Of a stretch of 64,000 nucleotides of DNA, positions 7,478 through 43,075 are shown piece by piece. Source of the DNA: a virus; IMG/VR virus record IMGVR_UViG_3300048892_000198, positions 1-64,000 of that record; one strand, given 5' to 3'. The position numbers and the translations under genes were made by a program. Each line of letters begins with the position of its first letter. The stretch's first letter is position 1. Under the pieces are notes generated by a model. That model worked only from the letters and a program-made list of their open reading frames with translations. It searched no databases and was not told where the DNA came from.

Positions 7478-7665
7478 AAGCCATCCTCTTTCTCCGCGCG
7501 TTCCTGAGCGAGATCTTCCCGCCCAAGCGCCGCATCGTGCGGCTCATCCGTCCGCACTGGCACACCCACGACTCGGCGCTGCTCGAGTGCGGGCACCGCG
7601 TCGTGGTCCTGAACTACTCCCTGGCTGCCCAGAGCCACGCGCGGTGCAATCGCTGCCTGCGCTAG
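7474..7665 (+). CDS. Small zinc-ribbon protein
   Basis: LECGH...CNRC; GTGA coupling. Confidence 0.55.
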   Translation: MKAILFLRAFLSEIFPPKRRIVRLIRPHWHTHDSALLECGHRVVVLNYSLAAQSHARCNRCLR

Positions 7666-8843
7666 ACGGCTTTGCCGTCAACGGTCACTGAGGTCGCGTC
7701 CGTCACCACGATGGTGCGCGCCGTGTGCGTGACGGGGGGCGGCACCGGGACAGGTGGGGGCGGAGGGGGAGGCACGGGCACCGGAGTCGTGCCCTTCAGC
7801 GCCGCCAGCAGCTTGTCACCGATCGGCACGCCGTTGCCCGTGCAGCAATCATAACCAGGGCGCGCTACGAAGGTGCCGTTGTTGCCGCTCGTGATGTCGC
7901 GGTTCCAGCCCTTGACTGCGTAGAGCGAGGCATGGAGCTGGCCCACTGGTTTGCCGAGGGCCTGCGAGAGCACGGCTGCGAGCGCGGCCCACATGGGCGC
8001 GACGGCGCTCGTGCCGCCGATGACCATCTGCTGACCGTCCACGATGACGTTCCAGCCGGTCTCGGGATCGGCGCAGCCGGCAACATCGGGGACGCCGCGG
8101 CGGGTCGAGCCCGGCACGTTGGAGGCCTTCTGGTACGAGGGCAACGCAAAGATCGCGCTCGTGCCGCCGCCCGTCGCGCCGCCTTGGCTGCCGTCGTTCC
8201 AGACGTTCTCGGTGAGGGGGGAGGTCGAGGGTAGACTCGTTCCGCCGCAACCGAGCACGTAGGGGCTGCTCGCCGGGAAATCGACATGCTGTCCCGCTTC
8301 GCCGTCGCCCGATCCGTTGTCGCCGGCAGCGGCCGTCACGGTGATGCCCTTACTCGCCGCCGCCGCGAACGCATTCTCGAAGCTCGAGATGGCCGAGATC
8401 GTCCATTGATTTTCTGCCGCGCCCCAGGAGATCGAAATCGCGGTCATATTGTCTGCGATCGCTTGATTGATGGCGGCGAGGAATCCCGCATCCGTGTTGG
8501 GGGCCATGTAGCAGTGGAGCTCGGCGCCTGGAGCCATGCCGCCGATGACGCAGAGGTCGAGCATCACCTCGCCATCGGCACCGTTCGGGTCGCCGGGGGC
8601 ATTCGGGGCGCCGCTCACACTGTGGAAAACGACGGGCTTGACCGAGAGACCAAGCGACTGGAAATACTTGTCGAGATCGGCTTGCACGTAGCCTCCGCCG
8701 AGCTCGATGACGGCGACCTTCATGCCCGTCCCATCGAAGCCCTTCGGGAAGCCGTAGATCTGCGCGAGCTGCTTCGGCGTGTAGCTCACGCCAGCCGTAT
8801 TGTGTTTGAAGTGGCGATGCTTGATGTAGGAACGAAACGTCAT
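7662..8843 (-). CDS. Sedolisin/kumamolisin-like S53 peptidase, catalytic domain only
   Basis: GEVMLD (Glu/Asp), SISWG, AAAGDNG (oxyanion Asp), GGTSAVAP (Ser) and a GYDxxTGxG Ca-binding-like site; Pro-rich C-terminal tail; no pro-domain or signal peptide. Confidence 0.92.
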   Translation of the reverse strand: MTFRSYIKHRHFKHNTAGVSYTPKQLAQIYGFPKGFDGTGMKVAVIELGGGYVQADLDKYFQSLGLSVKPVVFHSVSGAPNAPGDPNGADGEVMLDLCVIGGMAPGAELHCYMAPNTDAGFLAAINQAIADNMTAISISWGAAENQWTISAISSFENAFAAAASKGITVTAAAGDNGSGDGEAGQHVDFPASSPYVLGCGGTSLPSTSPLTENVWNDGSQGGATGGGTSAIFALPSYQKASNVPGSTRRGVPDVAGCADPETGWNVIVDGQQMVIGGTSAVAPMWAALAAVLSQALGKPVGQLHASLYAVKGWNRDITSGNNGTFVARPGYDCCTGNGVPIGDKLLAALKGTTPVPVPPPPPPPVPVPPPVTHTARTIVVTDATSVTVDGKAV

Positions 8844-9708: not shown

Positions 9709-10329
9709 CTATCTGGAACGCTTCCCTTTGGGCAAGAGCACCCAGGCCCCCGCTCCGAGCACAACCGCTGATCCCAAGATCCAGGGCAGGGCCGAATCGC
9801 TCTCCGCTGACGCGATCAACGGCTCGATCGAATAGAACGCCGCCACGTGCGAAAACTCGGTCTCGCTCGCGCTGACGGCGCCCGCGGTCCCGTTGCCGTT
9901 GACGAGACCGATCGTGCCGTCGTAGCTCACGTCCGTCACGACCGCCTGGTGCTGATTGTTCGTGAAGTAAGCGATGTCGCCGGGCTGGGGGGTTTCGGTC
10001 GTCGGGAGGTGATCGAGGAAGCCCTGACCGATCACCCAGTTGAGGTCGCGCGCGAGCCCCGCCTGGTGCAGCGACCACAGCGCGAACGCTCCGCACCAAT
10101 CCGGCGGGTAGCCCGAGGGCGGAGTGCCCGGGAGCACGTCGGCCCAGTAGGGGTCGGCATTCGAGCGGCCGAGCTGGCTCTGGGCGGCCCGCACGACGCG
10201 CGCGCGCGGCGGGACGGGCCAGAGCGCGTAGGCGCCGACGGCGAGCCCCGCTGCCCCAAGGCCTGCCAAAGCCCAGCCTTGGGGCGTCTGGGGCAGGAGG
10301 CGCCTAGCGGGGGCAGAGAGCAGGAGCAC
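9709..10329 (-). CDS. CHAP/NlpC-P60-like peptidoglycan hydrolase flanked by TM helices
   Basis: DWCGAFALW, PQPGDIAYF, HQAVV, VNGN; TM helices at both ends. Start uncertain: GTG 10329 chosen because the upstream ATG collides with the divergent gene. Confidence 0.85.
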   Translation of the reverse strand: MLLLSAPARRLLPQTPQGWALAGLGAAGLAVGAYALWPVPPRARVVRAAQSQLGRSNADPYWADVLPGTPPSGYPPDWCGAFALWSLHQAGLARDLNWVIGQGFLDHLPTTETPQPGDIAYFTNNQHQAVVTDVSYDGTIGLVNGNGTAGAVSASETEFSHVAAFYSIEPLIASAESDSALPWILGSAVVLGAGAWVLLPKGKRSR

Positions 10330-10414
10330 GCCCCGAAAAGTAGCATCCTCCGGAGGGGACTGATAGTTTTCGAAGGGAAGAAAGGCGCCCTGGGCGCCGT
10401 AGGACCCAGAGAGC

Positions 10415-11881
10415 ATGCCGCGATCAGCCAAAAAACTCTGGAAACTCAATACCCGCACTGGCTATTGGGACTATCAGCGCAGCGTGACCGACGAAACGGC
10501 CGCGGAGTGGCTGGCTTTATTCCGCGAGGGCGAGCCCGATGCAGAATTCAAGGTCAGTACGAACCGCCCGACGCCTCCAGCTCTCACCCCAAACCGTGCC
10601 CTCACCCGGCACAAGCTCGAGACCATCGCCTGGGAGAAAACACCCAGGGACTACCGGGGATCTTCTGGCACGCGTCGCGAAGTGCTCATTAACACCACCG
10701 AGGGCACGACGCTCGTGCCGCTCGGCGATCTCACGGACTACCAGCTTCGGCGGTACATCGGGCCAGAGGCCCTGGAAGAGGCGGGCGACATGCGAGCAAA
10801 TGGCAAAGGGCGCTACTCGGATACCGTTGCGCAGCCAGGCGACTGGGTCATTTGGCGCCACGGCACGAGTGGCAAATACTACTTCGACCTCGTTCGCTCG
10901 GGTGGCACTCACAGCACAGCGGTCGGCAAGCCCGCGCAGACCCTTCCCGGCGCCATCAGCGATGTCCGCAAGAACGCGCTTCGCAGCAACGATCTCAGCG
11001 GCACCATCTTCGAGTTACGACGATCCGGTGACCTCGTGGAGATCGGCAAAGTCTTCGAGTCCCAGGATCGTCTCAACCAGAACCCTTCCCGACGCCATGT
11101 GATCCCGGCGCCGAGGTTCGAGTTGGGTGACCGCGTCACTCGCATCGACGAGCCAACCAATGTCGGCACCGTTGGTTACACTACCCGCACCTGGCATGGC
11201 GAGGAATACGGCCGATACCACTACAAAGTCGACTGGGACAACGGCGCGCCGCGGCACACTCAATGGGAAACGAAACTCATGCCATACGCTGGGGGACCCG
11301 AGTCGCATCAGCGCAACGCCGCCCGCGGCGAGGCCGACGAAGTCGCCGCCCGCGAGCTCAGCCTCTACATCGAAAACGAGTACTCGCTCGTCGGCGCCCC
11401 CAATTCTCAGGGCAAGGCGATCGAGAAAAATCTCGAAGGCCACCTACGTCGCGGCAACTTCGATCTCAAGAAGGCCGAGATCGCGTACATGCACCTGATG
11501 GAATCGGGGGCCAAGAAGTACGCGAAGGAATTCGCGAGCGAGCGCGACTGGCACCAGATCTTTTCCGTGCCCACCCGTGAGCTCGTGGCTCACGAGTTCG
11601 CGACGACGTTCGCGGAGGAGCACGGGATCAAGGGCTCCCTCACCCGGAACGCTCACATCGAGACCGATGAATTCGATGCCCCTGCCTACTGGGCGAGCGC
11701 CTTCATCAACGGCGACACGTCCGGCCTCGAAGAGAAAGAACTCGAAGAGTTCGAGGCCTGGTGCGCTAAGCACCCTCAGTTCTATGTTGTCGATGTGAGC
11801 GAAGAGACGCACATCGGTCGCTGGAACGGTCTCCAAACAGAATTGGCTACGTATACCGCCTACGTACAAGAAGGATCCTGA
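10415..11881 (+). CDS. Multidomain polyvalent-type phage protein, 488 aa
   Basis: About six small domains, including an SH3/KOW-like FELGDRV...YKVDWD, ARELSLYIENE and PAYWASAFINGDTSGL, separated by LTPN, MRAN, LNQN, HQRN and LTRN. Confidence 0.8.
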   Translation: MPRSAKKLWKLNTRTGYWDYQRSVTDETAAEWLALFREGEPDAEFKVSTNRPTPPALTPNRALTRHKLETIAWEKTPRDYRGSSGTRREVLINTTEGTTLVPLGDLTDYQLRRYIGPEALEEAGDMRANGKGRYSDTVAQPGDWVIWRHGTSGKYYFDLVRSGGTHSTAVGKPAQTLPGAISDVRKNALRSNDLSGTIFELRRSGDLVEIGKVFESQDRLNQNPSRRHVIPAPRFELGDRVTRIDEPTNVGTVGYTTRTWHGEEYGRYHYKVDWDNGAPRHTQWETKLMPYAGGPESHQRNAARGEADEVAARELSLYIENEYSLVGAPNSQGKAIEKNLEGHLRRGNFDLKKAEIAYMHLMESGAKKYAKEFASERDWHQIFSVPTRELVAHEFATTFAEEHGIKGSLTRNAHIETDEFDAPAYWASAFINGDTSGLEEKELEEFEAWCAKHPQFYVVDVSEETHIGRWNGLQTELATYTAYVQEGS

Positions 11882-22369: not shown

Positions 22370-22627
22370 TTAGGCCTGATTTGGATGCAGAATCTTGACC
22401 GAAAGCCACGCAACGGCGAGCGTCGTGACGACGCCGGCGACGATCGGAAAGAGGAGGCTCTGCCTCGCTTCAGCCACGAGCGAGGTGCGGACGCCGTTCA
22501 CGCAGCCCGAGCATTCGGGGAAATCACTGCCCGCGTCATCGGGACAGATCTCGCAGTCCGAGCCCGAAGCGATCATGCAGGGCCCGCACGCTTCCCCGAG
22601 GCCTCTGACCGCTACGTAGCTCATCAC
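22370..22627 (-). CDS. GLG-family tail-anchored Cys-rich protein
   Basis: MMSYVAVRGLGE; six Cys; C-terminal TM. Confidence 0.7.
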   Translation of the reverse strand: MMSYVAVRGLGEACGPCMIASGSDCEICPDDAGSDFPECSGCVNGVRTSLVAEARQSLLFPIVAGVVTTLAVAWLSVKILHPNQA

Positions 22628-23040
22628 TTCCAGAGGAAGACGACACCCGCGAGCACGAGTGCGCCGGACACGATGAGCAAGGCCTTGTTAGGAGTCGCGG
22701 CAGTATCCCCGGTGCCACGCTGTGAGCACGGGCACGCGCCGACGCCCATCATGCCGTCCCGCGGACGGTACGTGCTCTTCTGCGGGAAGTGACCGAGGCC
22801 ATTGATGGCCTTCTCGTACTCGGGCTTGAAGTACGCGCCGAGACCGTTGATTGGTTTTTCGTACTCGGGCTTGAAGTATGCGCCAAGCCCTTCGACCGCG
22901 AGGCGCGGGGGGCCGACGAGGTTCGGGTTGACTCCGAAGGAGGGCCATGGCGCGCTCTTCCAACCCGCTTCTCCGGCATGCCACGGGCTGTCGGGCTGGT
23001 GCATGCGGTAGTACTCGGGTTTGATTTCGGCGTAGCTCAT
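22624..23040 (-). CDS. GLG-repeat tail-anchored protein
   Basis: (GLGAYFKPEYEKxIN)x2 followed by GLG; C-terminal TM ending in K. Confidence 0.75.
   Translation of the reverse strand: MSYAEIKPEYYRMHQPDSPWHAGEAGWKSAPWPSFGVNPNLVGPPRLAVEGLGAYFKPEYEKPINGLGAYFKPEYEKAINGLGHFPQKSTYRPRDGMMGVGACPCSQRGTGDTAATPNKALLIVSGALVLAGVVFLWK
22801..22890 (-). repeat. Two 45-bp intragenic tandem repeats
   Basis: Encode GLGAYFKPEYEKPIN and GLGAYFKPEYEKAIN. Confidence 0.85.
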
Positions 23041-25371: not shown

Positions 25372-26186
25372 CAGGCGGCGCTCCGTCTGCCCGTGACGAG
25401 CTTGTAGGCGCCCACGGCGGCGACGGCGCCGAGCGCGACCCAAAGGATCGCCTTGGTGTTGGTGGAAGCAGTGGGCGCCATCGCGGCGGGCGCCAGCGGC
25501 ACGGGCGCATTCGAGCCCGGGATTTGTGGCTGCCCAGGGCTCACCGGGCTCACCGGAATAGTGGACTGCACGGCCGGCGTCGCCGGCACCGTGATCGGTC
25601 CCTGCCGGAGCTGCGCGTTGAATGCGCTCGGGAAAGACCCCGATGCTGGGTGCGCGCGGTCTGACGCGGGAGGCGAGATCTCCAGGATGTACACGAGCAC
25701 GCCACCGATAGTCGTCGCGGCGTAGTTGAGCGAGGTCGGGCCGGTCTTCGGATCGGCACCGTCTCTCAGCCTCAGCCAGTAGAGGAAATAGATCCGAGGC
25801 GGGCTCGCATTGTCGAGCTGCGAGTAGACGGCTTCGGTGCGGTCGTACGCGAAGGGCGTGCCCTCGAAGGCTGCTTTGACAGCTTGCTGCCCCGTCAGCA
25901 CCGGAGAGATGACGGCAAGCTCTTGCACCACGCTGGAAGTGGTATTCGTGACGGAGACGAGCTGGAGGTCATTGACCGCGTACGCCTGGTAGTCCTTGAG
26001 CGGAGAGGCCTCGACCCACGAGGTCTCGAGCGTTGGCGACTGTGCGGCCCACTCGGTGTAGACGAGACTCGGAGCCGCACCGATGAGCGCGAGGAGCGCC
26101 TGGTCGGCAAGCGGGAGCGATTGATCGTCGGCGCCGAGCCCCGACAGATCATTGCGAAAATAGGAGGAGCCGAAGCGCAGCGTCAC
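25371..26186 (-). CDS. GLG-family tail-anchored virion-like protein
   Basis: SYFRNDLSGLGAD; Pro-rich linker; TM plus K..RR. Confidence 0.75.
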   Translation of the reverse strand: MTLRFGSSYFRNDLSGLGADDQSLPLADQALLALIGAAPSLVYTEWAAQSPTLETSWVEASPLKDYQAYAVNDLQLVSVTNTTSSVVQELAVISPVLTGQQAVKAAFEGTPFAYDRTEAVYSQLDNASPPRIYFLYWLRLRDGADPKTGPTSLNYAATTIGGVLVYILEISPPASDRAHPASGSFPSAFNAQLRQGPITVPATPAVQSTIPVSPVSPGQPQIPGSNAPVPLAPAAMAPTASTNTKAILWVALGAVAAVGAYKLVTGRRSAA

Positions 26187-26336
26187 GTGAGCCCTCCTTG
26201 AAAAATCACGAAGAAGCAGCCGTGCCCACCTGTCAGGACAGTTCCCAGCCGCTTGAGGTTTTTATGTCCTCGGTTGGTGGGAAAAGGTTCGGGGGGGGGC
26301 ACGGCTACTCCTTCGGGAAGACTGGGGGTTGGAGCG

Positions 26337-27158
26337 TTAAACGCCGCCAGATTTCGTGATGCAGGGCGCGATCGCCTTCTGCATCGCGATCAAATTGCTA
26401 TCAGGCATCAGAAACCCAAACACGCTCGCTTCGAAGAAGCCTACCGGGATCGGGATGGCTCGGAATACCGAGCAGCTCATGATGAAGTCCTCGCTCGAGT
26501 GCAAGATCCAGGGAGCCGGCACATGGAGCAGCCCCTGGCGGAAGTGGCGCTGCGGCATGAGGCTGAGGCCGAATGACGGCGACTGCACGCTCGAGGCACG
26601 GGCGGCGGCAAAATCATCGTCCGTCGCCGATCCCGGAGCCGAAGCCGACGGGATGCCGAGGTTCGGCATCGACTGATAGGCGGGCGAAGATGCGTTGGCG
26701 GGCGGCAGGGGATTGAGCTCGTAGTGGTAGTTGCCCTGGCGATTGGCGTTGGCCTTGATGTCCCAGCCGACTTGCGTGGAGAGGCGATTGTCCTCGAGCT
26801 CGACGAAGTCTCCGGCGGCGCTCCCGCTCGGCCTGTAGATCGCAAAGCGCGTGTCGAGTACGACGAAGCCCATCGTCTCAGGCACGTGCACGAAGCCCAT
26901 CTCGAACTCGCACTGCTGGCTCGGCGTCGCAGTGAAGATTCCGTCGATCGGCAGCCGTCGAAACACCGCCTCGAACGGCACGATCGATTCGGGGATGAGG
27001 TAGCTACTAAGCTGGCCTCCGGCGAGCATCACGCGATCGGTTGCGCACGCCGTGATGACGCCGCCATTGAGGCTCGGCTGCCCGAACAATGCTGGATTCG
27101 CGCGCCCGAGCGCGGCGAAGCCCGCTTGCTGCTGGGGGTTGAACAGAGGCTGATCCAT
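26337..27158 (-). CDS. Putative single-jelly-roll capsid-like protein 3 (minor capsid or penton)
   Basis: Beta pattern FEMGFVHVPETMGFVV, VGWDIKAN, PWILHSSEDFIMSC and terminal ASVFGFLMP; third of a tandem trio; fold is an inference. Confidence 0.5.
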   Translation of the reverse strand: MDQPLFNPQQQAGFAALGRANPALFGQPSLNGGVITACATDRVMLAGGQLSSYLIPESIVPFEAVFRRLPIDGIFTATPSQQCEFEMGFVHVPETMGFVVLDTRFAIYRPSGSAAGDFVELEDNRLSTQVGWDIKANANRQGNYHYELNPLPPANASSPAYQSMPNLGIPSASAPGSATDDDFAAARASSVQSPSFGLSLMPQRHFRQGLLHVPAPWILHSSEDFIMSCSVFRAIPIPVGFFEASVFGFLMPDSNLIAMQKAIAPCITKSGGV

Positions 27159-27170
27159 GCCTCTATCCTA

Positions 27171-28121
27171 TCAGTAAGGGCCGCTACCCGCAGGCTGCAC
27201 GATGCGATACCCGTGGTAGCCGATGTAGAGGATGCCGTTTGGGAGGCGGGTGATGGGATCGGTCGTGCCGGCGTCGGTCGAGACCTGATCGTTGATGCCT
27301 TCGATGTAGTCCCAACCCGAGGCCAAAAACGGGAAGTTGGCGTTGGCCGACGCGAACGACTGGATGTTGCCGTAGTCGGGGTTGTTGATGTGGGTCGGCT
27401 GCACCTCGAACGTCAGCTGCTCGCCGCGCTCGAATACGTCGAGGGCTCCGAGCTCGAAGGGGCTGTTGACCTGATCGGTCCAGAAGGCCGAGGGGACTTC
27501 GATGTTCGAGCGGGGGAAGGAAGAGCCGGCGTTCAGGAATTTGACCGTGTAGTCGGCTTGCATCGAGCGGAAGGGCGAGCCGTTCGAGGGGGAGAGGATG
27601 TGGGGTGCGCCGGTGCCGGGGAAGGCGAGACCGGACTGAGCCACCTGCTGGCGCGGCATGCCGTCCATGAGATCCCAGGTCGAATGGATCGGACGATAGC
27701 GACCATAGGATCGACCGAAGAAGGTCGCCTTGGCGCCCGTCACCGGATCGATGCGCTGCAGCTGGTACTGACTCAGGAAGATCGCCATGCGGCTCACGGC
27801 CACGAAGGGGCCTTCCTGGCTGATGAGGATCGATCCCTGCTGCTGCGAGTTGACGTTGGCGCCGATCGGGATCCTCACGAGCAAATCGAAGGGCACCCGG
27901 CGACCAGGGATATTTTCGATGTACTGGATGTTCGGGGGGTTGTTGGCGCCCGACCGATTGACGGTGAAGTTTTTCTGGATGTCATCCAGGCGCTTGTTGA
28001 CCTGCTCGAAGGCCTGCGAGTGGCCTTGGGCAACAGCGAGAGCTTGCTGGGCCGTGGCGCTCGCTTCTCGAGCGGTGCCGGCGGCGTAAGCGATCTGACG
28101 GGGGTCGATATTCTGAGTCAT
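27171..28121 (-). CDS. Putative single-jelly-roll capsid protein 2
   Basis: VPFDLLV, ISQEGPFVAV, YTVKFLNAGS...SNIEVP, PFELGALDVFERGEQLTFEV and terminal LYIGYHGYRI; fold is an inference. Confidence 0.55.
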   Translation of the reverse strand: MTQNIDPRQIAYAAGTAREASATAQQALAVAQGHSQAFEQVNKRLDDIQKNFTVNRSGANNPPNIQYIENIPGRRVPFDLLVRIPIGANVNSQQQGSILISQEGPFVAVSRMAIFLSQYQLQRIDPVTGAKATFFGRSYGRYRPIHSTWDLMDGMPRQQVAQSGLAFPGTGAPHILSPSNGSPFRSMQADYTVKFLNAGSSFPRSNIEVPSAFWTDQVNSPFELGALDVFERGEQLTFEVQPTHINNPDYGNIQSFASANANFPFLASGWDYIEGINDQVSTDAGTTDPITRLPNGILYIGYHGYRIVQPAGSGPY

Positions 28122-28301
28122 GAATCAGTGCCTTCAGCGGGGATCCCGCGTGAAGTACCTCGCTAAAGGAGCGAGTGCCTGTCGAAGCGGTAAAGACAGG
28201 CGCCCGGGTCTCCCCAGGCGCCACGGTCTCGATCTCCAAGGTGAGCTCCCTCAAGCGCCGTCCGCACGGATGCGGAAAGCTCGGGCGCTCACCCCAAAGG
28301 C

Positions 28302-29054
28302 TTACTGAACGTCTCGGCTGAAGAGCCCATCGAACGTGAACGTCACGACCTTGTTGATCGCGTCGATCGCGTTCAGGTTGTCGCGTAGGCTCAGCAGGCT
28401 GCGCTGGCCCTGGCTCGTCCCGGCGATGTTCGTGTTGGGATCTCCGGGCAAGGCGTAGATGTTCGCCGTGCACTTGATGTTCTGGCGCGGGGGGATCAAG
28501 ATCGCGCGGGCGAGCCGCAAGATGCCCGAGTGACCATCCGTGCCGGAGTTCTGCATGTGGATGAGGTCGGTCGCGCCGCCGAGCTGAGCCGAGAGGCCGC
28601 CGCCCGTCGGGAAGTACCAGGTCGGCATGTTGGTGATCGAGAACTTCTCGCCGGTGCCGAAGCTCCAGTGAAGTTGCTCCTCGGTCTGCCAATGCAGCCG
28701 AAACACGTCTTCGATCTGGCCTGGAGCTTGGCCCACGGCCGCTCCCGACCCAGTCCAGAGCGCCAAGTTGCCGTAGTCGCCGTTCAGGGCGAGCTCGCCA
28801 TCGACGCCCGCAACGCGCAGGATGCTGTTCCGGTACCAGGAGAACACCCGCAGCGCCAAGACGACGTGCGACTGATCGGAGGGCAGCGTGCTGCCGTTCT
28901 GGAGGTTGGTGGTGGCAGGGGTCCGGACGGTGCCCGACCCGCCGAAGAGATCGGTCGTGTCGCCGACCGTACCCTGGCTGTAGCCAGGCGTGCGGATCAG
29001 GGTATCCCAGAAGGGTTGGTGCACGCGCTCACGAATGGAAACGACTTTGGCCAT
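28302..29054 (-). CDS. Putative major capsid protein (single jelly roll)
   Basis: QPFWDT...TNLQNGSTLP...VLALRV, IPPRQNIKC and terminal VTFTFDGLFSRDVQ; strong AAGGAAG RBS, structured UTRs and position after the core protein; fold is an inference. Confidence 0.65.
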   Translation of the reverse strand: MAKVVSIRERVHQPFWDTLIRTPGYSQGTVGDTTDLFGGSGTVRTPATTNLQNGSTLPSDQSHVVLALRVFSWYRNSILRVAGVDGELALNGDYGNLALWTGSGAAVGQAPGQIEDVFRLHWQTEEQLHWSFGTGEKFSITNMPTWYFPTGGGLSAQLGGATDLIHMQNSGTDGHSGILRLARAILIPPRQNIKCTANIYALPGDPNTNIAGTSQGQRSLLSLRDNLNAIDAINKVVTFTFDGLFSRDVQ

Positions 29055-29203
29055 GATGGTACTTCTTCCTTAGCGGGTCTTTACGATGATTATGAGAGGC
29101 TCGGTTCCTCTTTGGACCCAGCAATACTTCGAGCCCAGGGCCTCGGTTTTCCGAGACCTCCTGGGCCGAAGCACTCACCCTTGCGGGTTACTGTTCGTTC
29201 ACC

Positions 29204-31357
29204 TCAACCGAACACGCCCTGACCGCCATCGGTCTGCAGGATGCCGGCCGGCACCATCTCGGTCGCACTTTGCGGATTGGAGATGCCGCGGGTACCCGCC
29301 CAGAGCTGCCCGTTGGCAGAGCCTGGGATCCAGGTCGAGGCCGAGGGCACCGTCGAGATGGCCCCGAAGCCCGCGGAGGCCTCGTAGCTCGGGAGAGCCC
29401 CGACGCCGGCTGCCGCTTCCGCGATGGTCAACTCGCGGTCGAGATCGCCGTGCGGATCGATGTGGTTGGTGTTCGCGAGCTCTCGCGCTCCCATGCCCGC
29501 CGCCGCTTCCTGGAAGTCGGGGTTGGCACCGTAGCCGGCCGCTGCCTCGTAGGCAGGGAGACCGAGTCCGGACACGCCGTTGTTCGAGAAGTACTCGCCC
29601 AGGCCCGAGACGCCGGAGTCGAAGTACTCGCCGAGACCATTGACGCCCGAGCTGAAGTATTCACCCATCGGACGACCGATGGAAGAATACCGAGGCTGCA
29701 GGCTGGTGCCAGCGCCGAGGCCGTACATCGCGCTCAAGCGCGCTGCCGTGCCGTCGTCACCGCTCAGCATGTCCGAGTACTGCGGCACGAACTTCGTCAC
29801 GAGCGCCGACAAGAACGTGTGCGCGAAGCTCACGGCGATGCCGGTCATGACGGTGTTGCGCGTGCCCGCGTCCTTGATGAGCTTCGCCGAAGCGAAGACA
29901 CCGAGGCCTGCGACCAGGAAGGAGGCGCCGATCTTCTGGTAGGACGGATCGAGATTGATCAGACCGAGACCAGAAGTAGCGGGCGCCACGACCGCTGCAG
30001 TCGTCGGGCTCGTCGCGACGACGACTGCCGGCGCTCCGAAGATCCTCCCGAACACCTGCTTCAGTACGAGGTTGGTGATGACCTTGTGAGCGACCAAACC
30101 CGTCAGGGCAATGCCGCCCGTCTTCAGCACGAACATCACCGGCTCGAGGATGCCGTTCTTCCGGAACATCCGGCTGCCGTTGCGGCGATGCCGACGACGG
30201 CTGGAGCGGTTCCGACGATGCCCACGACGCCGACGGTTCGAGCTCATGCGCGCCCGGCTTCGGCTGCGACGCCGACGCGGGTTTGCACTCAGCCGCCGAC
30301 TCGAGCGCCGACGACGGCGACCGTTGGCGGTGAGCTTTCGCTTGGCCCGACGCCGACGACGCTTCGGTGCGCCGCCTTTGGCCAGAGCCCGACGACGGCG
30401 ACGAGCCGCAACGGCCGATTTCTTCATCGACAGCTTGCGCTTGCCCCGACGACGGGTCACGCGCTTCTTGGCGGACCGACGACGACGCTTCGGCGCTGCT
30501 GCGGAGGCCTTGCGGCTCTTCCGACGCTTTCGCTTCGGAGCTTTACCCGAGGCGCGGCGCGTACGCCAGCCCTTACGAGCTCCCTTGCTCGTGCCGTAGT
30601 TGCGCTTCAGCCGACGACGGCGGCGATTGGCTTTGAGCGTGACCTTCCGCGCGCGCCGACGTTTCCGCTTCGGAGCGGCAGTGCGCTTCGCAACTCGGCG
30701 ACGCTTCTTGGTCGTGCGGCGTTTGGCAACGCGACGGCGCTTGACGGGCTTGCGCGCGGCGCTCTTCTTTCGGCGACGAACTTTACGAGCCATGGGCTTC
30801 TTCCTTGTTGCTTTCTTGGGCGCCGCACGGCGCCGGGACTTCGGTTTCGCGGCCTTGCGCACGGCCTTCGCCTTGCGCTTCCGCTTTCGGGGCTTAGCCG
30901 GGCCCCAAGGATCTCGGTGACGACTGGCGGCGCGCTCCCAGATCCGCTCTTGCGCGGGGGACACGTCGTTGCGCTTCATGGAACGAGCGCGCTTCGCGGC
31001 GCCGTAACTCTTGTACGTTTTGACCCGTCGCTTGCCGCCGACGTAGCTCACTTCACGGACGGGGCCGCCGCCTTTGCGCCAAGCGCGCAGGCTGTTCTTG
31101 CCCTTGGCCGCTCGCATCTTCTGCGCGAAGGCGGACTTCTTGGCAGCGCTGAGACTCGAGCGCGCCGCGGCGGGGCGGCGATTGGCGCTGAGACCGCTCA
31201 TCGTCCGGCGGGCAGAGCGGTAGCTGCCGCGGCCATTGATGGCGGCGATGTGGGTAACGGAACCGTTCCGCTTGAGGGCGCGCTTCTTCGGCGGGCTAAC
31301 GTAGCCGTACGCCTTTACAGCGTTCTTTTTGATGCGGTATGCGCGCCCAATAGCCAT
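29204..31357 (-). CDS. Protamine/histone-H1-like Arg/Lys-rich core protein with hydrophobic segment and GLG-repeat tail, 717 aa
   Basis: About 400 aa of K/R runs punctuated by xxxN motifs; hydrophobic helices; (G)xGEYF x3 and EAxAGxGA x4. Confidence 0.85.
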   Translation of the reverse strand: MAIGRAYRIKKNAVKAYGYVSPPKKRALKRNGSVTHIAAINGRGSYRSARRTMSGLSANRRPAAARSSLSAAKKSAFAQKMRAAKGKNSLRAWRKGGGPVREVSYVGGKRRVKTYKSYGAAKRARSMKRNDVSPAQERIWERAASRHRDPWGPAKPRKRKRKAKAVRKAAKPKSRRRAAPKKATRKKPMARKVRRRKKSAARKPVKRRRVAKRRTTKKRRRVAKRTAAPKRKRRRARKVTLKANRRRRRLKRNYGTSKGARKGWRTRRASGKAPKRKRRKSRKASAAAPKRRRRSAKKRVTRRRGKRKLSMKKSAVAARRRRRALAKGGAPKRRRRRAKRKLTANGRRRRRSSRRLSANPRRRRSRSRARMSSNRRRRGHRRNRSSRRRHRRNGSRMFRKNGILEPVMFVLKTGGIALTGLVAHKVITNLVLKQVFGRIFGAPAVVVATSPTTAAVVAPATSGLGLINLDPSYQKIGASFLVAGLGVFASAKLIKDAGTRNTVMTGIAVSFAHTFLSALVTKFVPQYSDMLSGDDGTAARLSAMYGLGAGTSLQPRYSSIGRPMGEYFSSGVNGLGEYFDSGVSGLGEYFSNNGVSGLGLPAYEAAAGYGANPDFQEAAAGMGARELANTNHIDPHGDLDRELTIAEAAAGVGALPSYEASAGFGAISTVPSASTWIPGSANGQLWAGTRGISNPQSATEMVPAGILQTDGGQGVFG

Positions 31358-31437
31358 TGTCAGGACAGACCTCTGCGCTCCCTTCAGAGCGCTCTAGCGG
31401 TCCTGACGAACCCGGCTAAACCGTTGCGGTGAATGGA

Positions 31438-31471
31438 AGCCTAAAAGACCTGGGGGGCTTCGTCAACTTTT
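31438..31471 (-). promoter_or_regulatory. Shared promoter motif, copy upstream of the core and capsid genes
   Basis: - strand AAAAG-TTGACG-N17-TAGGCT. Confidence 0.7.
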
Positions 31472-31530
31472 TGCCCGGTCGATCTGCTGTTTTTCTATCG
31501 AGTGCAGGATCGAGCCAAAAACAAGGGTGT

Positions 31531-31953
31531 TCAGGTACTCGAGCGGCGCACGAAAAAGTAGCCCGCGAGGCACGCCGCGCCGATGACGAAGTACCCGTTG
31601 AGCTTTGGGCGCCGCGCTTCGGCGTCGATCTTCTGGTAGTAGACGACTTTTTGTGGCTCAGCGAGCTGAGCGGCGTTCACCTGGCTCTGGTTCACGAAGA
31701 GCGAGCGCGTCCCTGTGCGTGGGAAGTTCGAGTTGTCGCCCGACGGCGGATAGGGCGCGGTCGGCAGCGGCAACCAAGCGGGGTAGAGCTTCGAGAGCGA
31801 TACGCGGTAGGCGTCGATCGATTGCTGCACCTTGGCCGCGGCTTGAGCTTGCTCCACCGCTATCGCCGACTGCGCCATGATGACAGTCTTAGGCGCGTTC
31901 GGGGTGGTCGTCGTCAGCGTCGAGGTCATGGTCGCACCCAGCATGCGTCTCAT
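31531..31953 (-). CDS. Tail-anchored membrane protein
   Basis: MRRMLGA; C-terminal TM plus RR. Confidence 0.7.
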   Translation of the reverse strand: MRRMLGATMTSTLTTTTPNAPKTVIMAQSAIAVEQAQAAAKVQQSIDAYRVSLSKLYPAWLPLPTAPYPPSGDNSNFPRTGTRSLFVNQSQVNAAQLAEPQKVVYYQKIDAEARRPKLNGYFVIGAACLAGYFFVRRSST

Positions 31954-33545
31954 GATTTTCTCTTCTTCCAGAGCGTCGCGCCGAGCAGGCCGACGCCGAG
32001 CAGCAGCATGCCGTAGTTCAGCAGGTCGGAGAGATTTTTTCCTGTCTTCTGCGCAACGACGTAACCTGCGGCGCGATCGAGCGCGGCGTTCGTGAGCTGC
32101 TGAGCGTTCGCTTTCAGGATGTCGTTGATCTTCTTTTCGGCGCCAACGGTCGCCGCAGTCTTCACGAGATCACCGACGACGGTCACGCTCAAGATCTGAA
32201 GTGCCTTCACGGCGGCTTGCTCTTGCGCAAGAGCGCTCGCCATGGAGTTCAGCCAGTTCTGCCTGGTGGTCGAGTCGAGCAGATCGACGCCGGAGGGCAC
32301 CGGGTAACTGCATTGATAATGCCGCTCGGCTTCGGGAAGCCAGATCGCGCCCCTCGCCAGAAACGCTTGCGCGTCGCGCTCGAGGCCCGTCGGCATCGTC
32401 AGGCCCGACACGATCGGGTAGGGGCAGCCGAAGTCCACGGGGCAGCCGTATGAGTAGACGTTGCTCCTCGCCGTCACGTCTTTGCCCTGCGCGGCGTCGT
32501 AGTACGTGGAGGCCTGCACCTGGTGCCCTACCACCTGCGCGCGGTTCGCTTGGGTCTCAGCGCCCGTGAAACGCCGCGTGGGCGCGTCCCACGCGTGCGA
32601 GAACGGCTGCCCAATCGGCGCGTATGTCTCGACCCCAAACCACCGAAGGTTAAACTTCCACCCGATGTTGATCTCGGCGAGCTCCCACTGAAGCTCTGTC
32701 GAGAGCAGTAGCTGATCGAAGGTCTGCCAGTAGCTCGCGCGCGCGGTCGAGCAGAGGGCATTGGCTTCTGCGACGGTCGACTTAGCCCACGAGCTCTGCG
32801 CGTTGATGCGCGATTGGATTTCTTCTGCGCCCGATGGGCCTGCGCCGAAGATCTGCCCGATGGTGCCCCCGATGTCTTTGCCGATGAGCCCACCAATGAA
32901 GGCTCCAATGGGCGCCGGGATCCCGAATGCCTGACACACGACAGCGCCCGCGATAGCGCCCGCGACGCCGCCAATGGCTTCGCACTCGGACGGACTCAGC
33001 TTCCCGTCCATGAGCGACTCGGCCGTCACCGTCAGGATCGACGAATCAAGCCCCGTCTCCATCACGAACGCCGTCGTCGCGAGGTTGACCGCGGCGGCCT
33101 TCAGATCTTTGACGTTCGTGGGCCAGTCGGTCGGGATCTGCACACCGAGATCGCTCGCGGCAACCTTCATGGCGTACTGCTCGAGTTCTTTCTGGTTGGT
33201 CGGCACGCCATTGTCGCGCGCGTAGGCGATGAGCGCCTTCTGCATCAGCGCTTCGACCTTCTTCGGATCCTTCAAGTCGCTCACCTTGAAGCCCGGGATC
33301 CCCTTGAAGTAGGCGGCGTATTTATTGTACTCGGCGATGACTGCGGCAGCGGGTGGGTAGTTCTCGAGCTGCTGCTTGGCGTAGGCGATGGCTTGCGCCT
33401 TGGCCTGATCGACGGCGGAGCTGACCGCGGCGTCGGCCTGCTTCTTGTAGTCCTGGGCGCTCGGCACTGTATCCGAGTTGCCCGGCAGATCGCTGTAGCC
33501 AAAGAGGCCGTGACGGCGACGGCGAGGCACTGCGGCGTAGGCCAT
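31950..33545 (-). CDS. Large tail-anchored virion membrane protein (entry or membrane-interaction candidate), 531 aa
   Basis: MAYAAVPRRRRHGLFG; internal glycine zipper GGVAGAIAGAVV...GAFIGGLIG; C-terminal TM plus KKRKS. Confidence 0.75.
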   Translation of the reverse strand: MAYAAVPRRRRHGLFGYSDLPGNSDTVPSAQDYKKQADAAVSSAVDQAKAQAIAYAKQQLENYPPAAAVIAEYNKYAAYFKGIPGFKVSDLKDPKKVEALMQKALIAYARDNGVPTNQKELEQYAMKVAASDLGVQIPTDWPTNVKDLKAAAVNLATTAFVMETGLDSSILTVTAESLMDGKLSPSECEAIGGVAGAIAGAVVCQAFGIPAPIGAFIGGLIGKDIGGTIGQIFGAGPSGAEEIQSRINAQSSWAKSTVAEANALCSTARASYWQTFDQLLLSTELQWELAEINIGWKFNLRWFGVETYAPIGQPFSHAWDAPTRRFTGAETQANRAQVVGHQVQASTYYDAAQGKDVTARSNVYSYGCPVDFGCPYPIVSGLTMPTGLERDAQAFLARGAIWLPEAERHYQCSYPVPSGVDLLDSTTRQNWLNSMASALAQEQAAVKALQILSVTVVGDLVKTAATVGAEKKINDILKANAQQLTNAALDRAAGYVVAQKTGKNLSDLLNYGMLLLGVGLLGATLWKKRKS

Positions 33546-34108
33546 CAGCCGACGATCCCGTCTTTTTCCACTCCCAGGATGTCGCCCGTGATGATCGCGC
33601 AGAGTTCGGTCTTCGTGTAGACGATGAGGAAGGTGTCTCCCGAGTCGGGATGCACGGCCGCTCCCACGTAAGCGCGCGCGATGTCGACCCCATAGTACTG
33701 ACCGCTCAGGACGAGCTCTTCATCGTCGTCGCACTCGGCGTACGGCTGGTACTGGAGCCCCAAGATCGGAGCCAAGACCGCGATCGCGGTCGGCATCCGC
33801 TTCGGAAGCTCGACCTCTTCGCACGGGAATGGCAAGTGCTTGCGCGTGCTGTAGTCGCGAAGGAAGCCGTCCTTGACGTAGAGCTTCTGCGGGCCTTCGG
33901 CGACGTGCTTATAGTCCTGGTAGTCGCCGCGCTTCTTCCACTTATCTGACGTGTATTGCACGGCTTCTGACTGCCCGACGCAGTAGAGCTTTTTCGGCCA
34001 CTTCCAATGGATCTTGGTCTCCTTCTCCACCTTGCGATCGACAAAGGCCTCCCGGATCCGCTTGGCGGATTCGTAGTCGGAAGCGTTGACGATCAGGCGG
34101 CGAGACAT
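33545..34108 (-). CDS. Hypothetical virion-associated protein
   Basis: MSRRLIVNA (LxxN motif); YTSDKW...YKH...VEKDGIVG. Confidence 0.7.
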   Translation of the reverse strand: MSRRLIVNASDYESAKRIREAFVDRKVEKETKIHWKWPKKLYCVGQSEAVQYTSDKWKKRGDYQDYKHVAEGPQKLYVKDGFLRDYSTRKHLPFPCEEVELPKRMPTAIAVLAPILGLQYQPYAECDDDEELVLSGQYYGVDIARAYVGAAVHPDSGDTFLIVYTKTELCAIITGDILGVEKDGIVG

Positions 34109-34114
34109 GAGGAT

Positions 34115-34513
34115 TCAGCGGCGGCGGCGGACTCTTTTGGCGCGGTCTTCAGGGTAGTACGTCTCGATGAAATCCACGAAGTCGCTCTTGGCCCGGCCAA
34201 CCATCTCGATGATCTTTTCGAGCTTGCCGAAGGTCGCCAGCCCCTTCTTATCTTCGACCGCGAGCCAGCCACCCGATCGACCGGCACGACCCACGCGACC
34301 GATCCAAGAGTACCGACGGCGGAGCTCTTGAGCCAGCACATCGAGCGCTTGGTCGGACTCGGCCGTAAACTCTTCGTCCGTCATGCTCACGCTGACCGGA
34401 GGGATCTTGATATCGAACTCGTACTCCGCGCCCTCGTCACCGATCTTCCACTTCTCATCCCAGCGACAGGACGACTCGAGCGAATGCGCAGGACCTAGTT
34501 CTCCTGGCATCAC
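34115..34513 (-). CDS. Hypothetical phage protein with acidic core and Arg-rich tail
   Basis: GRSGGWLAV motif; ends RAKRVRRRR. Confidence 0.7.
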   Translation of the reverse strand: MMPGELGPAHSLESSCRWDEKWKIGDEGAEYEFDIKIPPVSVSMTDEEFTAESDQALDVLAQELRRRYSWIGRVGRAGRSGGWLAVEDKKGLATFGKLEKIIEMVGRAKSDFVDFIETYYPEDRAKRVRRRR

Positions 34514-41784: not shown

Positions 41785-42506
41785 CAGGCAGCCGCTTTCG
41801 GTTTTTTGAAGGTCCTGTAAAGCGCGTAGCCGCCGACTGCGACCACGACCAGGATGAGCCCGTTGGAGAGCATGCCGGCGGATTTCTTCGTGGGCGTCGT
41901 CGTGATGGGCCCGGGAGATCCAGGCGTGATAGCAGGCACGGGAGCAGATGCGGGCGGCATCGGCTCGGGGCGTAGGTCGCCTGGCGGAGGACCCAGGACG
42001 GGCTGCGCAGGCGGGGTCGGCTGCGGACGCAAGGGCGCGATGGCGGGGAGAGCCGGCGGGCAGACTGGCAGCAGTGCCAGCGCGCAGGCGGAGCCAGTGG
42101 GATCGGCGCCGAGGCCGCGCACCGTTTGCGACATGGCGCTGCAGGTCTGCTGCCAGTTGTCGTGCTGGGCTTGCGAGACGCAGCCCGGGTAACCTGCAGG
42201 AGTGACCGCGCCCGCGGCCCGCGCCGCGGCGTTGGCCTGATCGAGCGCTCTCTGATTTTTGAGCTGCTGCTGCGTGCGCGCCACGAATGCCGCCGCGCGC
42301 GCTGCCTGCTCGGCCTTCCAGGCCGCGAGATCGCGCTGATAGCTCGCGAGCTGCGAAGCGTAGCCGGCGGCCGCGCCCGCGCTTTGAGCCGCGTAAGCTG
42401 CGACGGCGTTGTCGTGGCCCGCCTTCTCTTGCAGCCAGGCCGCGTGATCGGAGGCATAGTCGCCGAGCCCAGCGATCTTTCCGTGATAGGCGCGCGCGTA
42501 ACTCAT
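41784..42506 (-). CDS. GLG-family tail-anchored protein with coiled coil
   Basis: MSYARAYHGKIAGLGD; RGLGA; TM plus RTFKKPK. Confidence 0.75.
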   Translation of the reverse strand: MSYARAYHGKIAGLGDYASDHAAWLQEKAGHDNAVAAYAAQSAGAAAGYASQLASYQRDLAAWKAEQAARAAAFVARTQQQLKNQRALDQANAAARAAGAVTPAGYPGCVSQAQHDNWQQTCSAMSQTVRGLGADPTGSACALALLPVCPPALPAIAPLRPQPTPPAQPVLGPPPGDLRPEPMPPASAPVPAITPGSPGPITTTPTKKSAGMLSNGLILVVVAVGGYALYRTFKKPKAAA

Positions 42507-43075
42507 CCTTCGATCCTCCAAATTTTGTGAGTCGTCACGCGACTGAGCATCGTTGCCTCGTCGGTGCCCGCGACCGGATCGCAGATGATCCAGCGCTGGC
42601 TCTTGGGCTCTTGCACCCGGCAGAAGACGTGAGCGAAGGAATTGGGGCGCCCGAATCCGACGGTGACGTACTCGATCTCGCGGCCAAGCTGGCGGCAGAG
42701 CGTGCCGACGAGGAGCGCGATCTCATCGCAGTCGGCGACGGCTTTTCCGTGCTGCACGATCTCTTCGCACATGCGCTCGGGATCTTGCACCTGCTCGACC
42801 GCAACGGCGTCGTTCGAGTACTTGACCTTTTCGGCGACGAAGTTTCTGACGGCCAAGATCTCCGACACGTAGTCCTTGGGCGCGATGTCCCGGACGATGT
42901 GATCCTTCAGCGACCGCACGAGCGTCGACTGCTCGCCGCGTGGGCCGACCGTCATCGAGATCATGAGCAGGATGGTGTCCTGCGGCCCATGGAAGGGTCG
43001 GATCGCGGTCGGTTGGGTAGCAGCGATGGCGGAGGGCATGGGTCGGCCTACACGAGACCAACCTGAATCGCTCAC
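42503..43075 (-). CDS. Transglutaminase-like cysteine protease (candidate virion maturation protease)
   Basis: FVAEKVKYSND, ADCDE (Cys), FAHVF (His), WIICDPV (Asp); first gene after the shared promoter. Confidence 0.87.
   Translation of the reverse strand: MSDSGWSRVGRPMPSAIAATQPTAIRPFHGPQDTILLMISMTVGPRGEQSTLVRSLKDHIVRDIAPKDYVSEILAVRNFVAEKVKYSNDAVAVEQVQDPERMCEEIVQHGKAVADCDEIALLVGTLCRQLGREIEYVTVGFGRPNSFAHVFCRVQEPKSQRWIICDPVAGTDEATMLSRVTTHKIWRIEG

Follow-up and report, generated by a model that had tools for sequence, protein, structure and literature searches.

How does a bacterial virus make use of a protein that opens with some 400 residues dominated by Arg and Lys and continues into hydrophobic helices and an acidic tail? 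Such a protein, 717 amino acids (aa) long, is encoded on the minus strand of the IMG/VR virus record IMGVR_UViG_3300048892_000198 (Table 1), within the stretch analysed here (the window: the first 64 kb of the 110,728-bp record, which is estimated to be 82% complete). The answer that we favour, with a confidence somewhat better than even, is that it is an abundant, membrane-anchored structural protein that condenses the genome and belongs to a lineage of ~135-kb bacterial viruses not described so far. Searches of the full-text literature yielded no account of the virus group or of a phage protein of this type. A preliminary description of the locus had gone one step further and proposed a membrane-tethered, DNA-condensing precursor that is cut into protamine-like peptides, in analogy to adenovirus pVII and mu.

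The reading frame itself can be assigned firmly. G+C content at third codon positions (GC3) amounts to 0.78 in the minus frame (0.83 in its C-terminal half) versus 0.62 in the antisense frame, the genes nearby having values of 0.82-0.87; substitutions relative to the ortholog of a related virus are distributed 57/23/122 over codon positions 1/2/3 of the minus frame; and more than 100 homologs keep the minus-frame protein. By these measures the minus strand is the coding one, as in the preliminary description: the 717-aa gene is real and under purifying selection. A 720-aa antisense open reading frame (ORF; 29270-31432) could suggest that the 717-aa ORF is no gene, being open by virtue of high G+C or lying opposite the true gene. 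The three lines of evidence refute this explanation, the probability of which is negligible, and the antisense ORF owes its existence to high G+C.

Neither by sequence nor by fold could the protein be matched to a named or solved family. A Pfam-A scan of its whole length found no family at E values up to 0.1, and when it was scanned together with 40 neighbours against Pfam and PHROG, no family was assigned to it. Searching the PDB with the family profile returned compositional matches only (E ≥ 0.13), and a Foldseek comparison of the C-terminal model with viral structures gave no match at E < 0.1. In the ESM Atlas, only unnamed viral clusters were found, at 0.85; the Atlas model of the protein is poor (predicted template modelling score, pTM, 0.23) and its closest structures are membrane proteins, all with template modelling scores (TM-scores) below 0.4. 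An identity as Transglycosylase-associated protein (GlsB/YeaQ/YmgE) was rejected, as the query has no Pfam match and the name is attached by JGI to only one of 103 homologs (P0055); precomputed Pfam domains are present on none of the 103.

The hallmark of the protein is its polybasic arm. Residues 1-401 contain 175 Lys and Arg and 5 Asp and Glu, giving a net charge of +170, and over residues 151-405 Arg accounts for 35% and Lys for 18% of the chain; the Arg/Lys-rich N-terminus noticed at the outset is thus confirmed. So are all twelve short motifs that had been reported to divide the basic runs: IKKN, LKRN (twice), LSAN (twice), MKRN, LKAN, LTAN, MSSN, HRRN (twice) and FRKN. They conform to [LMIFH]xxN, here written Phi-x-x-Asn: of the 14 Asn within residues 1-410, 12 have L/M/I/F/H three residues upstream (position -3). 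The narrower form [LMIF]xxN is seen 10 times versus 0.92 expected, a count reached in none of 20,000 shuffles, and the offset is specific, with 10 hits at -3 versus 0-2 at any other offset. The motifs are spaced by a median of 19 residues, and the last one, FRKN-G (398-402), adjoins the first membrane helix. Of the 1,525 Asn in the basic arms of the whole family, 60% are preceded by L/M/I/F/H at -3 (background 11%), with enrichments of 5.7-fold for L, 9.8-fold for H and 6.1-fold for M. Outside the 717-aa protein, [LM]xxN reaches a z-score of only 1.6 genome-wide; in the structural block that surrounds the gene, the loose Asn motif has a z-score of 0.4; only the strict form is mildly enriched (5 versus 1.4). 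A genome-wide Phi-x-x-Asn code is not supported by these scores, and the motif is essentially private to the family of the 717-aa protein.

This family is large and anonymous. A search with residues 400-717 retrieved 103 homologs of 408-810 aa, all unnamed and located on viral contigs of up to 139 kb, and an exhaustive HMMER search of 1.84 billion representatives yielded 108 clusters (50% identity), 81 of them at E ≤ 1e-10. All full-length members follow the same plan: a conserved N-terminal segment, a basic arm, a membrane region and a conserved tail. The N-terminal segment has the form G-R-x-F-K-I-x-K-N ... N-P-G-V-T-x-I-A-A-I-N-G-R-G-x-Y (alignment consensus NPGVT.IAAINGRG.Y...SAR..M.GL), and 66 of the 104 family members carry an IAAINGxG-like motif within their first 120 aa. 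The length of the basic arm is highly variable. A comparison of homologs, which the preliminary description had called for, revealed that the Asn motif is nevertheless kept across more than 100 unnamed metagenomic homologs. In many of them, the arm is a tandem array of units of 9-24 residues, each with the motif at its end (for example in P0020, P0035, P0061 and P0083). The unit KRSRKTSRRSRKSFRAN recurs five times in slightly varying copies; other motif-terminated arm units are FTAKQRAAALRNLRKARAAQHRPN, VARRRPxRRVKRRxMKRN, AKRRTHRRN and AKRKTRKHRRN.

The hydrophobic helices expected behind the arm are present in the AlphaFold2 (AF2) model, computed from a 57-sequence alignment, and both kinds of repeat reported for the C-terminal part, GEYF (three copies) and EAxAG[YMVF]GA (four copies), could be located in the sequence. 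The predicted local distance difference test (pLDDT) is 83-97 over the blocks of the three long helices, with values above 90 for the helices themselves; it is below 50 over most of the tail (residues 546-717) and ~40 there except for two short helices. Tandem Repeats Finder detects 2.4 copies of a period of 33 in the GEYF region. The tail, which has a net charge of -11, includes motifs that are 70-100% conserved across the family and belong to its most conserved columns. A segment that is predicted to be disordered and yet is highly conserved suggests short linear motifs, which may become ordered when bound to a partner or be sites of enzyme action. The three predicted membrane passes would place the arm and the tail on opposite sides of the membrane.

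A core of the type G-Phi-G is common to both kinds of tail repeat and leads beyond the 717-aa protein. G[LMYFV]G occurs 10 times in residues 406-717 (membrane region included) versus 1.7 expected and 25 times versus 9.3 in the other proteins of the block, whereas the rest of the genome is not enriched (41 versus 43.9). The longer form [VIL]xG[LMVIFY]G, here Phi-x-G-Phi-G, is found 23 times versus 2.4 expected in the structural block (21708-43075, minus strand; z-score 14.6) and 20 times versus 2.8 in the block of a relative; in the remainder of both genomes it occurs at about expectation. The motif NGLG(A/E)YF recurs in the protein of 22624-23040, which repeats NGLGAYF. The pentapeptide often lies in the start region (the first 10-50 residues) of small membrane proteins. 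Its role could be that of a code for cleavage during maturation or of one for loading into the particle.

The block, which spans 21.7-43.1 kb, is co-oriented, and about 14 of 24 of its proteins (22370-42521, minus strand) have a C-terminal hydrophobic helix followed by a short Lys/Arg tail. These proteins lack signal peptides, and such a topology is not the usual one among membrane proteins of bacteria. Throughout the block, the basic segments (Lys/Arg tails and the arm) and the G-Phi-G domains lie on opposite sides of the membrane helices, an arrangement that fits one DNA-facing compartment and one that faces the shell or an enzyme. According to a different explanation, the 717-aa protein might act inside the cell without being packaged, either tethering replicating DNA to a membrane factory or compacting or displacing the host nucleoid. 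The positive-inside rule would put the arm in the cytoplasm, where both genomes reside, and the lack of a sequence or fold match to known structural or other families is compatible with such a role. However, the gene lies in a co-oriented, structural-looking block, immediately before the most conserved gene and in an order kept in distant relatives, and the tail shares its motif code with the structural block only. An intracellular role is improbable.

If the protein is a structural one, are the Phi-x-x-Asn motifs cut? Two fixed positions with free residues between them, placement at the ends of modules and a copy at the junction of arm and anchor make them look like the protease sites of a polyprotein. 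Cleavage after Asn is plausible but unproven, and as a reading of sequence motifs it deserves clearly less than even confidence. Alternatively, the protein may have the same role without being cut; Phi-x-x-Asn would then be a recurring element of structure or docking, either capping each short basic helix or touching DNA, lipid head groups or the shell, and the arm would stay tethered in the mature particle. This is quite possible, if somewhat short of an even chance. Helices are commonly capped by Asn, and across the family Gly is enriched 3-fold directly after arm Asn. The best conserved copy of the motif is the one nearest the first membrane helix (FRKN-G in the 717-aa protein), three residues before it, and MRRN forms the start of many ~300-residue entries for this family in the databases (annotated starts, possibly truncated calls). 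Individual sites turn over: among 12 close homologs some are invariant and others change, the mean identity being 0.70 at motif Asn versus 0.56 at all arm positions (P = 0.06). Pro, enriched 2-fold after arm Asn, follows it in 8% of sites, which is unacceptable to many proteases, and the virus encodes no protease of known Asn specificity. Difficult to reconcile with an uncut arm, on the other hand, are units of 8-10 residues such as AKRRTHRRN, which are too short to form independent helices; specificity at -3 and 0 with free residues between, which is typical of protease subsite recognition; and the position of the motif, always at the end and never at the start of duplicated units.

Several enzymes were considered for the processing step. 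Legumain (C13, PF01650) has no match in three viral genomes, in a search that matched a Caulobacter control and leaves room for a host enzyme; adenain (Peptidase_C5, PF00770) has none in this genome or two complete relatives. An S8 subtilase (7662-8843, minus strand) was rejected as processing enzyme: it is absent from 4/4 relatives and therefore likely accessory cargo. A CHAP-domain protein is encoded near it (9709-10458, minus strand). A transglutaminase-like thiol enzyme of 190 aa at the head of the structural block is the sole candidate maturation protease kept across the lineage. It matches Pfam Transglut_core with 25.7 bits (cut-off 23 bits), its residues Cys116, His149 and Asp166 are invariant, and it is kept in 4/4 viral relatives and 3/3 relatives from metagenome-assembled genomes (MAGs) that were searched. 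In two MAG relatives its gene lies ~10 kb from that of the 250-aa protein described below, on the same contig, and in two relatives it is fused into a 414-aa ORF. Of the tethered, DNA-condensing precursor proposed initially, the tripartite build, the place in a structural block, the conservation of the motif across the family and its position at the ends of repeat units in homologs are all borne out; the cutting remains the doubtful part, with neither an Asn-specific protease nor adenain encoded.

The next gene downstream encodes the 250-aa protein that had been called a capsid candidate. That the 717-aa gene lies directly upstream of it is correct, and the 250-aa protein is indeed extremely conserved and beta-rich: it has 670 homologs at E < 1e-5, of which those listed are 65-95% identical and near-uniform in length, as fits a major shell protein. 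Where its fold is concerned, only weak jelly-roll-like matches were obtained. With a pLDDT of 47, the AF2 model is poor; Foldseek returned no match at E < 1; and VIA-align gave a best Z of 5.5, several capsid proteins of the jelly-roll type scoring 4.1-4.7, which is still noise. Atlas feature scores of the protein to PRD1 P3/P2 clusters are 0.75-0.77. It is the first of three consecutive beta-rich proteins of 250, 316 and 273 aa (26337-29054, minus strand), which match no family and keep their order in distant relatives. The architecture of the 717-aa protein is retained, always directly upstream of the 250-aa gene, even where the product of the latter is no more than 32-58% identical. Relatives in which the 250-aa protein is 53-61% identical encode a basic protein of 734-824 aa directly upstream of it, and one with 34% identity a basic protein of 941 aa; in two relatives with 32-33% identity, two smaller paralogs occupy this place. 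The leaders of the short-leader paralogs end with M-R-R-N-P just before the membrane region and comprise 24-27 residues in the smaller paralog.

The spacer between the two genes contains a conserved RNA hairpin with a minimum free energy (MFE) z-score of -4.5, an invariant GG(A/C)AAACC loop region and compensatory changes in 9 of 15 pairs across 7 relatives; it matches no Rfam family. Acting as attenuator, stabiliser or operator, it may determine how much of one protein is made relative to the other. The promoter that the preliminary description had ascribed to the 717-aa gene was not recovered: a consensus scan of 26000-34500 found no sigma-70 promoter, and the virus has a sigma factor of its own.

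A further possibility is a role in genome delivery, as a pilot or ejection protein whose arm sits on the DNA end and whose helices form or line an entry channel, comparable to podovirus core proteins or the PRD1 tube proteins. An arm that binds DNA, joined to membrane helices, would suit this, and an adjoining 531-aa protein weakly matches tape-measure and lysin families. The 717-aa protein itself belongs to no PHROG family that would indicate a tape-measure or ejection protein, and Terminase_6N is lacking in the lineage. Moreover, the charge and length of the homologs vary widely by unit duplication, which fits a bulk counter-ion better than a defined channel, and +170 far exceeds what is needed to hold a DNA end; a delivery protein is a rather remote prospect.

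Table 1. Coordinates (window positions) of the 717-aa gene, its segments and neighbouring features
Feature	Position	Strand	Basis
Whole ORF, tripartite protein, 717 aa	29204..31357	-	Translation; GC3 and codon-position substitutions; homologs
Conserved N-terminal segment, residues 1-60 (GRAYRIKKN..., GSVTHIAAINGRGSY), Phi-x-x-Asn motifs on its flanks	31178..31357	-	Family alignment
Polybasic arm, residues 1-401, net charge +170, 12 [LMIFH]xxN motifs	30155..31357	-	Composition, shuffles, family statistics
Membrane region, residues 402-545: predicted helices 404-440, 471-493 and 497-523, short helices to 545	29723..30154	-	AF2
Acidic tail, residues 546-717, predicted to be disordered, terminal PAGIL..GGQGVFG	29207..29722	-	AF2 and family conservation
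GEYF / G-L-G-E-Y-F repeats, residues 563-603, 33-nt DNA period	29549..29671	-	Sequence and Tandem Repeats Finder
Four E-A-x-A-G-[YMVF]-G-A motifs, residues 604-669, including invariant DLDRELTIAEAAAGVG	29351..29545	-	Sequence and family alignment
Conserved RNA hairpin in the spacer 29055-29203 (149 bp) between the 717-aa and 250-aa genes	29132..29167	-	MFE, covariation
250-aa beta-rich protein ('capsid candidate'), next gene downstream	28302..29054	-	Homolog search, AF2, fold searches
Transglutaminase-like Cys-His-Asp enzyme, 190 aa, head of structural block	42503..43075	-	Pfam; invariant triad

Where genes of the genome at large can be recognised, they are of bacterial type: DnaB, a sigma-70 factor, a beta clamp, a CHAP domain, glycosyltransferases and a Cas12-like gene. 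A 514-aa protein (452-1996, minus strand) has a weak match to a Cas12f1-like TNB domain (E 0.008). Further along the record, beyond the window, a 1,695-aa protein that contains repeats of the collagen triple-helix type (E 2e-32; G000:C1:95401-100488, plus strand) is likely a fibre; the syntenic relative G001, a complete genome of 135,429 bp with direct terminal repeats, carries repeated copies of sequence related to it at 56-65 kb. Terminase_6N, FtsK/SpoIIIE and the A32 ATPase have no match in this genome or two complete relatives, and all six frames of G001 contain just two ORFs with a Walker-A motif, DnaB and a 226-aa kinase-like protein. The lack of a recognisable packaging ATPase makes condensation-driven assembly attractive. 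Together with a block rich in membrane helices, it also makes a lipid membrane in or around the particle likely and a tailed-phage architecture unlikely. As to the host, nine relatives of the 250-aa protein are binned in MAGs assigned to Pirellulales (two), Planctomycetota, Phycisphaeraceae and a few other phyla; the four of the nine bins that belong to the phylum Planctomycetota are a weak hint only, since binning of viral contigs is unreliable.

A membrane-anchored, genome-condensing protein could function in the following manner: The arm, judged by its charge, would bind and neutralise the viral double-stranded DNA (dsDNA), full neutralisation of a 135-kb genome requiring a computed ~1,600 copies. 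The three predicted helices would fix the protein in a virus-associated lipid membrane, and the acidic tail, across the membrane from the arm, probably contacts the shell, a matrix or a maturation enzyme. More tentatively, and short of an even chance, the ends of the Phi-x-x-Asn modules may be processing sites at which protamine-like peptides are freed and the arm is detached at FRKN/G, with the transglutaminase-like thiol enzyme as the putative processing enzyme. Unlikely in its full extent is a widespread, motor-less lineage of ~135 kb, possibly viruses of Planctomycetota, in which a membrane-anchored polyprotein, cut after Asn into DNA-condensing protamine-like peptides, would be combined with a Phi-x-G-Phi-G code that is read by a protease of transglutaminase fold and matures ~20 other particle proteins. 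The two would amount to a phage version of the core and maturation system of adenoviruses.

Besides the turnover of Asn sites, the Pro that follows some of them and the missing processing enzyme, a number of points weigh against the proposed genome-condensing role. DNA binding is suggested by charge only and presence in the virion by gene position; we infer, likewise, both the membrane in the virion and the capsid nature of the 250-aa protein. The negative result for a packaging ATPase derives from three Pfam models and a Walker-A pattern. Topology is a further difficulty: according to the positive-inside rule, an arm of +170 should stay in the cytoplasm, and in assembly of the PRD1 type the cytoplasmic face of the membrane comes to face the capsid, not the DNA-filled lumen. 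A cytoplasmic arm would imply either that the membrane is acquired differently, by wrapping of the nucleoprotein or by budding, or that the arm is freed at FRKN/G and then packaged.

Among known systems, adenoviruses offer the most detailed parallel. The adenovirus protease (AVP; clan CE, family C5) has the general consensus (M/I/L)XGX-G. Adenovirus pVII, pre-mu and pVI are DNA-bound precursors that are cut at sites like IVGL/G by this papain-like thiol protease (PMC4246237). The likeness comprises very basic proteins for viral dsDNA, precursor-type short motifs with a hydrophobic fourth-last residue and, among the products of the structural block, a thiol enzyme whose triad is papain-like; the Phi-x-G-Phi-G motif of tail and block has the format of the AVP site IVGL/G (PMC4246237). 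The motif of the basic arm, in contrast, ends in Asn instead of Gly: neither (M/I/L)XGX-G nor (M/I/L)XGG-X was found in the arm, motifs of the IVGL/G format occurring only in the membrane region, the tail and other block proteins. Furthermore, the 717-aa protein has a membrane anchor and exceeds mu 10-30-fold in size, and the host is bacterial. The proposed parallel to pVII and mu thus survives in motif format and thiol enzyme, whereas Pfam gives no homology to pVII or mu, adenain is missing and the arm motif is of the Asn type; every feature of adenovirus membership that could be tested was negative, which leaves an analogy at most.

A precedent for condensation-driven assembly is offered by the Portogloboviridae. 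In Sulfolobus polyhedral virus 1, VP1 and DNA form a nucleoprotein core within an inner membrane and a single-jelly-roll shell; portogloboviruses also carry a mini-CRISPR array (PMC8459092). DNA condensed by a viral protein inside an inner membrane and an icosahedral shell (PMC8459092) is what the genes would suggest here, too. Compared by description only, VP1 differs in that it forms a filament with DNA and has no membrane anchor described (PMC8459092). Sulfolobus polyhedral virus 1 is also archaeal and has a circular genome of 20 kb.

Three other systems resemble single aspects. The internal proteins IPI-III of phage T4 are basic, are co-packaged with the DNA and undergo trimming at (L/I)xE by the prohead protease gp21; they share with the 717-aa protein the basic character and a short motif with an upstream hydrophobic residue. 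Unlike it, they are small and soluble, amount to a few hundred copies and a minor counter-ion, and accompany terminase-packed DNA; motif and protease are different, and there is no similarity. Plant cyclotide and orbitide precursors are cut after Asn by an asparaginyl endopeptidase (legumain, C13). Repeated short modules that each end in Asn are a likeness of format only, as the products and the biology are unrelated and the three viral genomes searched contain no C13 enzyme. Finally, the cargo-loading peptides of encapsulins are short tags, rich in Gly and hydrophobic residues, for docking on the inner side of a protein shell. Short Gly-hydrophobic-Gly motifs in disordered stretches, common to unrelated proteins of one particle, are reminiscent of these tags; the type of shell is different or not established here.

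Double-stranded DNA phages are thought to pack naked DNA by means of a motor, the counter-ions being ions, polyamines and no more than a few internal proteins, and protein-condensed genomes are a feature of animal viruses (adenovirus, baculovirus) and some archaeal viruses. To our knowledge, no studied phage has its genome neutralised and tied to a viral membrane by one protein. A conserved, membrane-anchored protein of +120 to +170, encoded beside the main structural gene of a motor-less virus of 135 kb, would, if the favoured reading is correct, extend protein-mediated genome condensation to bacterial viruses and represent a type of virion architecture not known before. From the modules that end in Asn, a protease specificity or a natural family of DNA-condensing peptides could emerge that is likewise new, and both short motif codes make directly testable predictions for mass spectrometry.

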